This document shows positions 12,401-15,940 of a stretch of DNA of 64,000 nt, one piece after another. Both the position numbers and the translations under genes were made by a program. The stretch is from Candidatus Bathyarchaeota archaeon (lineage in GTDB: Archaea > Thermoproteota > Bathyarchaeia > Bathyarchaeales > Bathycorpusculaceae). A model generated the notes under the pieces. The model was not told the origin of the DNA. It worked only from the letters and a program-made list of their open reading frames with translations, and searched no databases. The DNA lies in the NCBI GenBank assembly GCA_963832745.1, contig CAWHVC010000005.1, positions 1-64,000 on the forward strand. The letters run 5' to 3'. Each line of letters opens with the position of its first letter. Within the stretch, counting starts at the first letter, position 1.

Positions 12401-12474
12401 GGCCGGGGTGAGGTAGCTTGGTAGCCTAGAGGCCTGTGGAGCCTTTCGCCAGGGTTCAAATCCCTGCCCCGGCC
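12401..12474 (+). tRNA. tRNA-His(GUG), encoded G-1, no encoded CCA, no intron
   Basis: GCCGGGG/CCCCGGC acceptor stem, GAGGC-CTGTGGA-GCCTT anticodon arm, CAGGG-TTCAAAT-CCCTG T arm, G-1:C73. Confidence 0.95.
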
Positions 12475-12531
12475 CTCTCATGTTAGAAAAACTTAATTTT
12501 TCGATGAAACATCGTTTCTAATGGTGATTTT

Positions 12532-13533
12532 TTGCGTATTGCTTTTTTTGAGGTTCAAGAGTGGGAACGCATCTATTTGGAATCCGGGTTAAAGGGGCAC
12601 GAAATTCGCTTATTCATGGATGCTTTAGACGAAAAGAACGCCTTAGAGGTTGCTGATTTTGATGTTGTGTCAGTTTTTATTTACTCCAAAGTTGACAGGG
12701 CGGTTTTAGATAAGTTGGTTAAGTTGCGTTTGGTTGCTACTCGTTCAACTGGTTTTGACCACATTGACGTTAAAGAATGTGTTAAAAGGGGGATAACAGT
12801 CTGTAATGTACCTTTTTACGGTGAAATCACGGTAGCTGAGCATACATTTGCGTTGATTCTTTCGCTTTCCCGTTTGATTCATGACTCGTATGAACGCACC
12901 CGAAGGGGAGATTTTTCTTGCGAAGGCGTTGAAGGCTTTGATTTAAACGGTAAAACCTTGGGCATTCTAGGAACGGGCCGTATCGGAGTTAAAGTGATAG
13001 AGATTGCTAAAGGTTTCAGTATGAATATTTTGGCTTTTGACAGATCGCCCAAACTGGATTTAGCCTCTAATTTAGGCTTCAAGTATGTTCCAGCGGAAGA
13101 ATTGCTTGCAAAAGCCGATGTTGTTACGTTGCATTTGCCATTGAATAAGGATACTTTTCATTTTATAAACAAAGAGTCAATCGGTAAAATGAAGAAAGGC
13201 GTAATCATCATTAATACTGCACGAGGCGGACTTATTGACACTCACGCGCTTGTAGAAGCCTTGATTGATGGTCGAGTAAGGGGAGCAGGGCTAGACGTTT
13301 TAGAGGAAGAAACCCTTGTCCGTGAAGAAGCCCAGTTGCTGCTGGATAACATGCCAAGGGAGCAGCTTGCAACAATGCTGCGGGCACACATTCTTTTACG
13401 GTTGAACAACGTAATCATTACGCCGCATTGCGCGTTTAGCAGTCATGAATCCTTACAGAGGCTTGCCAATGTTACACTTGAAAACATTTGCGCATTCATA
13501 GGTGGGAAAACACAGAACGTAGTCAAAACGTAA
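12532..13533 (+). CDS. D-isomer-specific 2-hydroxyacid dehydrogenase (D-lactate dehydrogenase-like)
   Basis: RSTGFDHID, GILGTGRIG, NTARG, TPHCAF. Confidence 0.9.
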   Translation: MRIAFFEVQEWERIYLESGLKGHEIRLFMDALDEKNALEVADFDVVSVFIYSKVDRAVLDKLVKLRLVATRSTGFDHIDVKECVKRGITVCNVPFYGEITVAEHTFALILSLSRLIHDSYERTRRGDFSCEGVEGFDLNGKTLGILGTGRIGVKVIEIAKGFSMNILAFDRSPKLDLASNLGFKYVPAEELLAKADVVTLHLPLNKDTFHFINKESIGKMKKGVIIINTARGGLIDTHALVEALIDGRVRGAGLDVLEEETLVREEAQLLLDNMPREQLATMLRAHILLRLNNVIITPHCAFSSHESLQRLANVTLENICAFIGGKTQNVVKT

Positions 13534-13660
13534 TGGTTCAAAAAGTAGAATTTCCAAATTTTAGCATTGATTATCTTTTTTAGAAAAATCCTTGGAAAAA
13601 CAAGCACCGATAATTTAAACAAAGCACAACCTTTAACAAACAAATAACGTCATATTTCCC

Positions 13661-13870
13661 TTGTCTCGCCATAGATGAGCACCCATAACGACGGACTTAA
13701 CAGAGGAACGCAAGAACTATAAAGCTTGCACCTATGACCGCTTGAGTTCTACCCAATTATGGGACAGGTGAGGCAACGGGCGATAATAAATTCCCGCGCC
13801 GAGAGAGCTTAGCCAAGCTTAAAGCGACGCTCAGCTGTGAGGTTAAGTGTTAGGTTACGTTGGGAGACAA
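13661..13870 (+). ncRNA. Candidate structured non-coding RNA of unknown family
   Basis: Terminal TTGTCTC/GAGACAA pairing, nested helices, G-U pairs favouring + strand, upstream TTTAAA and downstream T-tract. Confidence 0.55.
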
Positions 13871-13960
13871 AAGCCCGCAAATAGTTTTTCTCATTTATGA
13901 TGTATTATGTCTCAATAAACTTTATAAAACTGTTTTGGAACCTTTCACACGTGAAAATCA

Positions 13961-15940
13961 ATGAATTATAGAACACAAGCAATCATCCTTACAATTTTAG
14001 TATTCATATGTTTAACATTACCAATATCAGGATTAGCCGAACCCATAACAGTCACATCCACAGGACCAGCACACATAGAGTTTTATAGCAAAACTCAAGG
14101 GCAATGCTATGTCGAAGTAGGAACAACTCCAAGCGAGACGCCAGACGAGTTCTATTTCGGTCAAGGCAACCTTTCAATAACAGGATATGCAGATGCAAAA
14201 ACAGACTATGACGGCGCAATTGCAAACAAAACTGTTTACGCCAATGGTAACATTCAACTTAAATTTAGTGACCAAACATTGAATCTTAACATACAATCAA
14301 GCAATGAAACCGTAGCTTACTTCTTAAGCGATAATTATGGATCCAAATACAATGACAATTACGCCATAGGATGCGACTTCAGCAAAGAAACAACTCCTAA
14401 AGAAATACATCTCGTATTAACTGGAAACACGACAGACAGATTTGGAACAAAGGCATTTTCGGGAACGTTAGTTTTCTACGTGGATGAAGAAACAACCTTT
14501 GAAGATTCTAACCAAGCAATGACTGCAATAATATATAATGGTGATAACACGGTTCTTGCAAGCATCATTTGGGTACAGGAAGATACAGCTGTACCGTGGG
14601 GATTCACTTTAAACGAGGCAGAAATGTTCCAGCATTCAGTAGATTTCTACGCTATCTCGCCTAGCCTAAAAATAGTTACAAACGCTGCAGGCAACTGCGT
14701 TTATTCACAGTTTCCTTCAGAATTTGATGACTACTCCGAAATGCCCCAACTGCAACACGGCAACGGAAGCCTCATCTTCAATGCGATGACTCTAAACGAG
14801 GCAAACGTTGAACAGTTTTCTGAAGAATATTACGGTTTTGATAGCGGAGTTTACGGTATTGGCTCGATTAATTTGAGCATGCAAAACAACCAATCAATAA
14901 ATGTTAACATTTACACAAACGGTTCAGGCGCAGGCGGAATGTTCCTCAGGGAAGGAAACCAGAGCATATTCCTAATTGGAAACGTTTACCAGAGCAGCGG
15001 AACTTTGGCTTTTAATGGCACACAACAAAACGCTACAGGAACATACAACATAAAAGGCACATTTGAAATTTACTCAATCGAAGTTCAACAAGAAAATTCT
15101 ACATCAACAATGTATGTAGTTGAAACCATTCTTATGAACGAAAATGAATATCCTATCGCCATTTCTATATGGTCACAAGGCGACTACCCTGAATTTTCAG
15201 AAGAAAACAACATCGATTTACTTGCAGCTGACAGCTTTGAACGCTCAGTAGATTATTGTCCAAGCGCATGCACCACCATAACTTCAGACAACAACACCAC
15301 AATCATTGCTGATCATACTACAGCAACGGGAGCAAAAATCAGCCTCAACGGCACAATCATACCAACCGGCACAATATTCAACATTACAACCGTAAACTAT
15401 GGCTCAACACAACCCATCAGCGTAACTAACCCACCAACCCAAGGGGCAACTTATTTTGAAACACGAATTATGCAGGCAAACGGTTCTGCCCTAAATGGTG
15501 TTACAGCAAAGATTAGTTTAACAGACTTAAGCTTTAACACTTCAAGCGCAATCTCATACTGGAACGGCACCACATGGGTAAAAGCAGTGAACCAACAGTT
15601 TACAGCGCCTAACACAATCAGCGGCGAAATTTTGGCGTCAGAATTAACTGACACTACAGTCATGGTTGATTATTCAGCCCCAACATCAACACCAACGCCA
15701 ACACCTACCCCTACAACAACGCCTTCTCCTTCACCATCTACTTCGCCTTCGCCAAGCAGTTCACCATCACCCACCACAACCCCAACAGCGACAGCAAGCC
15801 CATCAACATCTCCGGAAAACGTTATTCCAGAGTTCGGCGTGTTTGCGGTTTTGGGTTTAATGGCTTTGTTAACATTCTTTGCAGCTATTGTGCGCCTACG
15901 TGGCGGAAAAAGGACCGTTAACTTCGCACCCCAAATCTAA
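13961..15940 (+). CDS. Cell-surface glycoprotein with Pro/Thr/Ser linker and PEF-CTERM sorting signal
   Basis: Signal peptide, many NxS/T sequons, PTPTP/SPSP linker, VIPEF+TM+basic tail. Confidence 0.85.
   Translation: MNYRTQAIILTILVFICLTLPISGLAEPITVTSTGPAHIEFYSKTQGQCYVEVGTTPSETPDEFYFGQGNLSITGYADAKTDYDGAIANKTVYANGNIQLKFSDQTLNLNIQSSNETVAYFLSDNYGSKYNDNYAIGCDFSKETTPKEIHLVLTGNTTDRFGTKAFSGTLVFYVDEETTFEDSNQAMTAIIYNGDNTVLASIIWVQEDTAVPWGFTLNEAEMFQHSVDFYAISPSLKIVTNAAGNCVYSQFPSEFDDYSEMPQLQHGNGSLIFNAMTLNEANVEQFSEEYYGFDSGVYGIGSINLSMQNNQSINVNIYTNGSGAGGMFLREGNQSIFLIGNVYQSSGTLAFNGTQQNATGTYNIKGTFEIYSIEVQQENSTSTMYVVETILMNENEYPIAISIWSQGDYPEFSEENNIDLLAADSFERSVDYCPSACTTITSDNNTTIIADHTTATGAKISLNGTIIPTGTIFNITTVNYGSTQPISVTNPPTQGATYFETRIMQANGSALNGVTAKISLTDLSFNTSSAISYWNGTTWVKAVNQQFTAPNTISGEILASELTDTTVMVDYSAPTSTPTPTPTPTTTPSPSPSTSPSPSSSPSPTTTPTATASPSTSPENVIPEFGVFAVLGLMALLTFFAAIVRLRGGKRTVNFAPQI

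Follow-up and report, generated by a model that had tools for sequence, protein, structure and literature searches.

The window analysed here is a stretch of 64,000 nucleotides (nt) from Candidatus Bathyarchaeota archaeon (assembly GCA_963832745.1, contig CAWHVC010000005.1, positions 1 to 64,000 of the forward strand), and the element in question is a structured small RNA encoded in it. The RNA is a real, single-copy, independent + strand non-coding gene without an Rfam family. It is housed in a gap of 427 nt between two open reading frames (ORFs), 12532-13533 (+ strand, 2-hydroxyacid-dehydrogenase-like) upstream and 13961-15940 (+ strand, 659 amino acids) downstream. We found that the G+C content of the RNA island was 0.46-0.52 compared to 0.27-0.30 in the flanks, which confirmed an initial annotation, made by a model from the letters of the DNA, of a G+C-rich island in AT-rich intergenic DNA. 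The gene and its signals are placed as follows.

13628-13639, + strand: promoter-like element AACCTTTAACAA, of the B recognition element (BRE)/TATA type; the same word or AACATTTAACCA stands equally far upstream in relatives of the genus
About 13657-13884 (ends approximate), + strand: small RNA gene; covariance-model match at 13654-13885, on the + strand only
13885-13889, + strand: T5 tract, read in the sequence

From its sequence and position, we infer that the AACCTTTAACAA element is the promoter, with a predicted start near 13657-60, and the T5 tract is likely an archaeal terminator. The initial annotation had named TTTAAA at 13614 and the T-tract as signs of an independent transcript; the T-tract was retained and TTTAAA was set aside, since the element conserved in the genus is the one at 13628-39. 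When Rfam was applied at its gathering scores, the sole match in the window was a transfer RNA (tRNA), and the RNA locus was unmatched. A permissive scan (E≤10, 13540-13960) returned no HgcG or other box H/ACA family, just noise at E=3, in agreement with the unassigned status that the initial annotation had given the locus. The tRNA gene lies at 12402-12475 of the window (Rfam match 12407-12468, 36.1 bits) and was called tRNA-His(gtg) by ARAGORN. The possibility that the RNA is the RNase P RNA or the signal recognition particle RNA of the genome was rejected, as each is encoded at another locus (C1:258727-259030, 185 bits, and C2:188072-188387, 156 bits, respectively).

We wanted to place the RNA among its relatives. 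Its own genome (3.02 Mb) carries a single copy of the stretch. BLAST detected it in 22 of the 24 genomes of the genus at 73-94% identity, one of them with two copies, and the two genomes without a BLAST match are 88% and 65% complete; the 3′ half was matched in 7 further genomes of the order that belong to different families. GTDB, with one genome per species, was then scanned for a pattern built on the invariant columns, which retrieved at least 117 stretches. Among the 80 titles of matches listed, nearly all were Bathyarchaeia, Bathyarchaeota or MCG, and a few read just 'archaeon', Nitrososphaerota or Thermoproteota; one match outside these 80 (L138) was a chance match. Two of the 80 titles read Acidiferrales or Acidoferrum, which are bacteria (L044 and L088), although the contigs carry this archaeal RNA; these are probably archaeal contigs misplaced in bacterial bins.

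A covariance model, R1, found the RNA in 134 of the 151 sampled genomes of the class, including 86 of the 95 high-quality ones, with one main copy per genome. In a phylum-wide sample it matched 65 of 151 genomes. Outside the class, the matches in other Thermoproteota were weaker than those within it and included those in the sampled families f44 (14/15), f45 (8/8) and f38 (8/19); several other sampled families, such as f42 (0/13) and f47 (0/13), gave no match. In distant orders the 3′ hairpin alone is well kept, after a short 5′ hairpin, giving a total of 130-160 nt. In eight distant-lineage loci (L173, L174, L164, L172, L215, L217, L218 and L219), hairpins like the 5′ and the 3′ domain appeared as separate neighbouring matches, some of them on opposite strands or in tandem arrays with units of 120-150 nt.

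Next, the fold was examined. The minimum free energy of the + strand was -65.1 kcal/mol (z=-1.51), a value equalled or bettered by 19 of 200 shuffles, and the - strand gave z=-0.31. Single-sequence folding is thus non-significant, and the case rests on comparison rather than on energy. For this, 81 sequences of at most 92% identity were aligned, and a structure was derived by eye from covarying words together with RNAalifold; all counts on pairs and invariant bases below refer to this set. We found that 35 of the 50 modelled pairs showed compensatory change. Standard pairs filled 89.5% of the cells compared to 82.4% when sequences were shuffled and about 40% when partners were slid, and doubly changed cells numbered 340 compared to 97 after shuffling. 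None of 500 shuffles matched the observed covariation values. The structure was drawn from the same sequences, so the slid control is somewhat flattering, and the counts of compensatory change are independent of that. Collectively, these data showed that a covariation-supported structure is present far beyond chance. The homologues and covariation to which the initial annotation had pointed as a check were therefore found.

These results bear on the simplest explanation, a chance G+C-rich fold or a mobile repeat such as a miniature inverted-repeat transposable element (MITE), the latter being what the initial annotation would have made of a multicopy element. The shuffled folding energies fit such a view. 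The copy numbers given above, single in its own genome and one main copy per genome class-wide, and the strong covariation refute it, and we assign it practically no weight.

The fold consists of two adjacent domains with one hairpin each, and in each hairpin ACA comes after the lower stem, an internal loop separates this stem from the upper one, and a GA motif of K-turn (kink-turn) type is predicted above. The features are listed below.

13661-13670 / 13767-13776, + strand: helix P-A, closing the 5′ hairpin beyond ACA; 7 of 7 modelled pairs change on both sides
13682-13688 / 13757-13763, + strand: helix P-B, lower stem of hairpin 1; 6 of 7 pairs change on both sides, for example AU 58 / GC 17 / UA 3
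13689-13696, + strand: predicted 5′ guide of hairpin 1, CGAC plus GGAC; GACGGAC 13690-96 invariant in 81/81
13693-13700 / 13742-13749, + strand: helix P-G, upper stem of hairpin 1; 92% of cells paired, upper pairs covary (CG 42 / UG 25 / UA 14)
13703-13737, + strand: predicted kink-turn (K-turn) and apical hairpin of hairpin 1; GA 13703-04, GG 13705-06 / CC 13731-32, bulge UAU 13733-35, GA 13736-37
13750-13756, + strand: predicted 3′ guide of hairpin 1, UACCCAA; ACCCA invariant
13764-13766, + strand: ACA box 1; invariant in 81/81, immediately 3′ of P-B
13777-13781 / 13873-13877, + strand: helix P-C, closing the 3′ hairpin beyond ACA; 6 of 8 modelled pairs change on both sides, for example CG 69 / UA 9 and CG 66 / UA 10
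13792-13800, + strand: helix P-D, lower stem of hairpin 2 (13792-98 / 13858-65); 4 of 7 pairs change on both sides
13801-13806, + strand: predicted 5′ guide of hairpin 2, GAGAGA; AGAGA invariant
13807-13848, + strand: helix P-E (13807-13 / 13842-48), the upper stem, with GA-type loop and apical hairpin of hairpin 2; 4 of 7 pairs change on both sides
13849-13854, + strand: predicted 3′ guide of hairpin 2, GUUAGG; G13849, U13851 and G13854 invariant
13867-13869, + strand: ACA box 2; in at least 90% of the 81 sequences, one base past P-D; ANA in a few relatives

The 10-bp register of P-A in the window was read from its sequence. In P-G, the lower pairs (GGAC/GUUY) vary on one side only, so that for these four pairs covariation neither proves nor excludes GGAC/GUUC. 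The apical stem of hairpin 1 is formed by 13710-14/13725-29. Its sequence pattern below this stem is compatible with a K-turn, as predicted from sequence: A13704 and U13735-G13736-A13737 are invariant, G13703 is nearly so, and the pairs of the C-helix covary (GC 48 / AU 26, and GC 48 / AU 9 / CG 5). The strands of the internal loop are CGAC and UACCCAA in the 5′ domain. In the 3′ domain they are CCGAGAGA and GUUAGGUUA, and the GA-type loop is made of AAG 13815-17 and UGA 13838-40, of which U13838 and G13839 are invariant and A13840 nearly so; in other lineages the motif reads GA...UGA, a pattern compatible with a K-turn. The lower stem of the 3′ hairpin is unusual in having a UUA bulge (13855-57), across which CC 13799-800 may pair with GG 13853-54, as comparison with relatives without UUA suggests.

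The pairings proposed in the initial annotation could now be compared with this fold. Every complementary word of it that was checked exists in the sequence at the stated position, and GCAAG/CTTGC and CCCATAA/TTATGGG were the sole pairings to survive in the covariation fold; the remaining stems did not. The proposed outer stem (13661-67/13864-70) is not kept in relatives and is unsupported because 13661-67 becomes CCCAC-type and pairs with 13767-76 there, while GAGACA stays fixed. The long-range pair ACTTAAC/GTTAAGT gave way to the local helices 13693-700/13742-49 and 13807-13/13842-48, and the GGC-CGGG/CCCG-GCC arm to 13777-81/13873-77 and 13792-98/13858-65. No comparatively supported pseudoknot was found, and those suggested in the initial annotation are unsupported.

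Most Bathyarchaeia outside the genus of the window add a third hairpin at the 5′ end, a K-turn or kink-loop (K-loop) of the form NNGC-GAU-GA-(loop or inner hairpin)-N-GA-GCNN (loci L024-L030 and L036-L151). Judged by eye and uncounted, its closing stem shows compensatory change and it starts about 25 nt past a TATA-like word. That GCGAUGA at the 5′ end and CGCGA at the 3′ end might be C/D boxes in these lineages was considered and dropped, as GCGAUGA...GAGC forms its own K-loop hairpin with a stem that covaries by eye.

To see the RNA in transcript data, as the initial annotation had suggested, metatranscriptomes were compared. Four runs from four studies each contained discrete short contigs of 172-198 nt that were 90-97% like 13676-13871 and ended there, and the word depth of these RNA-only contigs reached up to 42.8. 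Just the four compared runs were used as evidence, and uncovered parts of the window are no evidence of silence; the small word shares seen in DNA and RNA runs carry no information on habitat. For an abundant small RNA of close relatives, discrete contigs limited to the RNA, as seen in these four studies, would be expected.

We then examined the neighbourhood of the RNA in other genomes. Among the first 30 loci, 15 are followed on the same strand by a gene for a protein of 362 amino acids with KMSKS, which we take to be tyrosyl-tRNA-synthetase-like (tyrS) from its likeness to archaeal TyrRS; at a further locus the gene is found upstream, on the opposite strand. Of 20 genomes from distant orders, 19 had tyrS adjacent to the RNA, 15 of them in the same orientation and 4 in the divergent one; 10 had a pheT-like gene upstream and 13 a small Toprim-like ORF past tyrS. 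A cluster of a pheT-like gene, the RNA, a tyrS-like gene and the small Toprim-like ORF was seen across Bathyarchaeia (L184-L203 and L024-L029). In the window and in other members of its genus the RNA is unlinked from tyrS.

Since most lineages have the RNA ahead of tyrS in the same orientation, we asked whether the RNA could be a cis-acting leader, a riboswitch or a T-box-like element for the downstream gene. The loci with divergent or unlinked tyrS argue against this, the unlinked RNA of the window and its genus being followed by the T5 tract. In addition, the RNA has its own conserved promoter-like element, a second promoter-like word stands between the RNA and tyrS, and the contigs of the RNA libraries end at the RNA. 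A cis-acting role is thus largely refuted and we consider it very improbable.

The two-hairpin anatomy pointed to another class. In archaeal box H/ACA RNAs, a lower stem with ACA, a pocket, an upper stem and a K-turn follow one another, and the target lies 14-16 nt from ACA (the n+15 rule), according to two papers (PMC11077068, PMC7075261). We found that both hairpins of the RNA have the lower stem, pocket, upper stem and apical loop of this plan, and that the helices are covariation-supported. In hairpin 1, U13750 lies 14 nt before ACA box 1. In hairpin 2, the spacing is 17 in most of the class; in the window it falls from 18 to 15 when the UUA bulge is taken as looped out. Relatives from beyond the class have their 3′ guide 14-16 nt ahead of ACA or ANA. 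Protein partners were also sought in the genome itself, and genes for Nop10 (79.2 bits), Gar1 (31.5 bits) and a TruB_N protein (78.2 bits, in a frame of 360 amino acids) were found, all above the Pfam cut-offs; the TruB_N protein is Cbf5-like.

Rfam scans of relatives were consistent with these findings. When 20 R1-matching loci of other Thermoproteota were scanned, 5 gave sub-threshold matches to HgcG (RF00064; 19-31 bits, E from 3e-6 to 0.011), of which 3 cover exactly its third motif, and the HgcG-matching relatives follow the canonical plan with a lower stem of 9-10 bp. The gathering score of HgcG is 77 bits, which the window RNA and its relatives do not reach, so the RNA is not a member of the family as curated. 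Muller et al. 2008 (PMC2377435) report that Pab40 motif 3 is active in vitro on U2016 of 23S ribosomal RNA (rRNA); helix 69 has two conserved pseudouridines, of which this is one.

We consider it likely that the RNA is a two-hairpin box H/ACA guide small RNA of Bathyarchaeia, with helix 69 and the peptidyl-transferase centre as its predicted sites of pseudouridylation. Of what the initial annotation had offered, a new archaeal non-coding RNA, ribozyme or riboswitch, the archaeal non-coding RNA holds; ribozyme, riboswitch and a new class do not, given the H/ACA anatomy, the similarity to HgcG via relatives and the rRNA complementarity described below. Following the established H/ACA model, Cbf5, Nop10 and Gar1 would sit on ACA and the lower stem, L7Ae on the K-turn, and the pocket of each hairpin would use its two strands to pair with 23S rRNA on either side of a uridine that Cbf5 isomerises to pseudouridine (Psi). 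What was observed is the conservation, the fold, the boxes with their spacing, the one-site complementarities, the genes for the proteins and the occurrence in RNA libraries; which uridines are targeted, that they are modified and that the proteins bind is what we infer by analogy with that model.

To identify candidate targets, the rRNA of the genome was searched. The large-subunit (LSU) gene (C5:643790-646560) meets the contig end, and its first 250-300 bases or so are absent; the small-subunit (SSU) gene (C5:524515-526004) lies about 118 kb away and is unlinked from it. For hairpin 2, the fold fixed the limits of the pocket, and minima of 3 and 4 pairs and of 9 in total were set for the scan over LSU plus SSU. 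A single site passed, UAACUCUGAC[UC]UCUCAAGG in helix 69, with 6+4 bp. In this canonical register GUUAGG (13849-54) pairs with UCUGAC and GAGA (13803-06) with UCUC, and the 3′ hairpin would address the U of CUGAC[U]CUCUC in helix 69. From our own alignment to E. coli and yeast sequences, we take this U to be E. coli 1921, on the 3′ strand of helix 69, and the equivalent of yeast 25S Psi2264. The same site was among few candidates in each of five other genomes from four families and was top or tied top in 4 of them; in one of the five, a variant guide AUAAGA matches a variant rRNA UCUUAA.

The 5′ guide of hairpin 2, GAGAGA, is complementary to CUCUCUC on the 3′ strand of helix 69, and in the genome itself and the five others helix 69 reads UAAC-UC-UGAC-UC. 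Owing to this internal repeat, GUUA can dock in two registers six bases apart. In the second register, GUUA/UAAC and GAGAGAG/CUCUCUC would form and leave UCUGA unpaired around the two loop U's, an arrangement that recalls the unpaired UNUN used by the second stem-loop (SL2) of the guide sR-h45 of Haloferax volcanii (PMC7075261).

For hairpin 1, we found that ACCCA (13751-55) and GACGGAC (13690-96) are complementary to one place in LSU plus SSU, UGGGU-UUA-GACCGUC, which is the UUU adjoining the peptidyl-transferase centre. U13750 would stand opposite the first unpaired U; given its distance to ACA, the n+15 rule then selects the unpaired U that comes next, which is the third in the run. In H. 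volcanii the third U of this run is the Psi2605 position and the first is m3U2603 (PMC7075261). The 5′ hairpin would address the UUU of the peptidyl-transferase centre at the equivalent of Psi2605, with a pseudouridine predicted at the second or third U of GGGUUUAGACC. The persuasive argument for the guide reading is that both matches fall in known archaeal pseudouridine regions and in the same 5′-to-3′ order as in sR-h45; it was made post hoc and is weighted so. A search for contiguous antisense to rRNA gave no signal (79 stretches of at least 9 bp compared to a shuffle mean of 69).

Several findings weigh against a modification guide. Some concern the anatomy: the genus of the window has AA/UGA or AA/UGC at the second GA motif, which is not a standard K-turn; the 3′ guide of hairpin 2 lies 18 nt from ACA in the window, where the rule gives 14-16; and P-A and P-C, which directly follow the ACA boxes, are outside the classical plan. 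Others concern the targets, which were interpreted after the fact. The 5+4 core match of the 3′ hairpin arises in 176 of 2,000 shuffled rRNAs, and a match of the kind found for the 5′ hairpin in 206 of 2,000. Wider H/ACA target scans, including the matches of the other genomes taken singly, did not exceed what shuffled sequences gave. Of the 81 aligned sequences, 14 have A in place of U13850, which would mismatch helix 69; in the five genomes of this clade that were searched, no assembled helix 69 match was found, the single match not being rRNA. For the 5′ hairpin, no canonical site was found when LSU plus SSU were scanned, and the pairing described for it leaves three bases unpaired, contains an A.A mismatch and must open GGAC/GUUC. 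Furthermore, the family link to HgcG is transitive, with the window RNA itself unmatched in Rfam, and contigs of RNA libraries, in which DNA may occur, cannot prove transcription, strand or ends.

Some of these features would suit an H/ACA-like particle that does not modify RNA, for which eukaryotic snR30/U17 is the model of a chaperone-type H/ACA RNA. Such a particle would bind L7Ae and Cbf5 and act as a chaperone or scaffold in rRNA folding or processing, its loops pairing with pre-rRNA without catalysis. Loop bases that are invariant class-wide and beyond, the non-canonical pairing of the 5′ hairpin and the extra closing helices are in keeping with this, as is sR666 of S. islandicus, a Cbf5-bound K-turn hairpin reported as having no assigned guide function (PMC11077068). 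Against it, the 3′ hairpin fits canonical guide geometry at helix 69, the relatives resemble Pab40 motif 3 with its in vitro activity on its own helix 69 site (PMC2377435), and both predicted sites are known as pseudouridine sites in other archaea (PMC2377435, PMC7075261). We regard a non-modifying particle as improbable.

The linkage to tyrS led to another explanation, that the RNA is a K-turn RNA of other function, acting for example with tyrosyl-tRNA synthetase or tRNA-Tyr, and that its H/ACA likeness is superficial. The tightness of the linkage (15 of 30 loci with tyrS as the downstream gene in the same orientation, and 19 of 20 distant genomes with tyrS adjacent) and the third K-turn hairpin at the 5′ end in most lineages would be accounted for. 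When both hairpins were read against the putative tRNA-Tyr of the genome, neither showed canonical pairing to U35. The ACA boxes, their spacing, the similarity to HgcG and the double rRNA complementarity would need coincidence, and the conservation persists in genomes such as that of the window, where RNA and tyrS are apart. This explanation, too, seems to us quite unlikely.

A 7-base match of CCGAGAG to the anticodon-stem region of tRNA-Tyr was dropped, as these bases are not conserved in the RNA family. The tRNA itself was an observation of its own: ARAGORN called C1:87858-88011 (154 nt) as tRNA-Arg(tct) and reported no tRNA-Tyr in the genome, and the gene has C1-G72, A73 and a CUGUAGA loop, which we read as a tRNA-Tyr(GUA) with two putative introns, one in the anticodon stem. 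Its second intron (C1:87919 region) contains UCUACCCAUGGUGGG, which is like UCUACCCAAUUAUGGGACAGGUGAG of the RNA (13746-13763), possibly by chance.

Between these explanations and a conventional guide stands a 'clamped' H/ACA variant that lies partly outside the classical rules, each of its hairpins locked by a helix that comes after the ACA box. In such a variant the 5′ hairpin would open its own upper stem and pair 7-9 bases at the peptidyl-transferase centre with UUA left unpaired, the 3′ hairpin could use the helix 69 repeat to serve more than one uridine, and the class-wide linkage of the gene to the start of tyrS, within the pheT - RNA - tyrS - Toprim cluster, might stem from a further role connected with tRNA-Tyr or from joint expression with translation genes. 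We consider this variant possible and rather doubtful.

Bathyarchaeia are abundant and mostly uncultured archaea. In a literature search at the level of catalogue entries, no paper was found that joins them with H/ACA or other modification guide RNAs. The RNA adds a new lineage to a well-known RNA class, and Rfam is without a family for it. If the guide assignment is true, pseudouridines are predicted at two functional centres of the large subunit of Bathyarchaeia, helix 69 and the peptidyl-transferase centre. A guide with two hairpins and these two targets would then be common to archaea as distant as haloarchaea and Thermoproteota, which would fit an old origin of the sites. The covariance model could annotate a gene missing from Rfam in hundreds of genomes, and its odd features (helices past both ACA boxes, a bulge in one lower stem and a 5′ guide that is atypical) are of interest for the study of how H/ACA particles choose their targets. 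For general readers, this is an ordinary housekeeping RNA.

Comparison with known guides placed the two hairpins further. HgcG (also Pab40, Pf7 and Afu4) is a three-motif H/ACA small RNA of Thermococcales and Archaeoglobus, whereas the Bathyarchaeia RNA has two motifs and, in most relatives, a 5′ K-loop hairpin. In plan, motif 3 of HgcG resembles the 3′ hairpin, which in the HgcG-matching relatives has a lower stem, then a 5′ guide, an upper stem of 7 bp with a closing G.U pair, GA...GAUGA as the predicted K-turn, the identical 3′ guide word (U)GUUA and ACA. Helix 69 is the target of motif 3 (PMC2377435) and the predicted one of the Bathyarchaeia hairpin. Compared to the HgcG-like relatives, the Bathyarchaeia hairpin has an extra GG-UUA after GUUA, which we read as two pairs of the lower stem plus a 3-nt bulge. 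The 5′ guide is GAGAGA in the Bathyarchaeia RNA and GGGUUA in HgcG, read as a six-base shift of the target along the helix 69 repeat. Two-register docking may explain why the two have a common 3′ guide but unlike 5′ guides.

A likeness in targets was seen to sR-h45 of H. volcanii, which was compared by description rather than by sequence; no sR-h45 family surfaced in the Rfam scans. As described in PMC7075261, sR-h45 is of similar size and has two H/ACA hairpins with K-turn GA pairs, each followed by ANA or ACA, and the order of its targets is alike: the 5′ stem-loop directs Psi2605 in the UUU of the peptidyl-transferase centre, and the 3′ stem-loop acts on helix 69. The two hairpins of sR-h45 are separated by a linker of 56 bases, whereas those of the Bathyarchaeia RNA abut, each with an extra closing helix. 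The canonical register of the Bathyarchaeia RNA would lead to a U in the stem of helix 69 and sR-h45 to the loop U's 1940/1942, and the pairing of the 5′ hairpin is atypical in Bathyarchaeia, whereas that of the first stem-loop (SL1) of sR-h45 is typical.

Guides of S. islandicus, which belongs to the same GTDB phylum, are K-turn hairpins that guide the pseudouridylation of rRNA through pairings of 8-11 bp that are often imperfect, and one of them must unwind a stem for target binding, as reported in PMC11077068. In the same account they are single hairpins, many of them without lower stem and ACA, whereas the Bathyarchaeia RNA keeps both boxes and adds closing helices.

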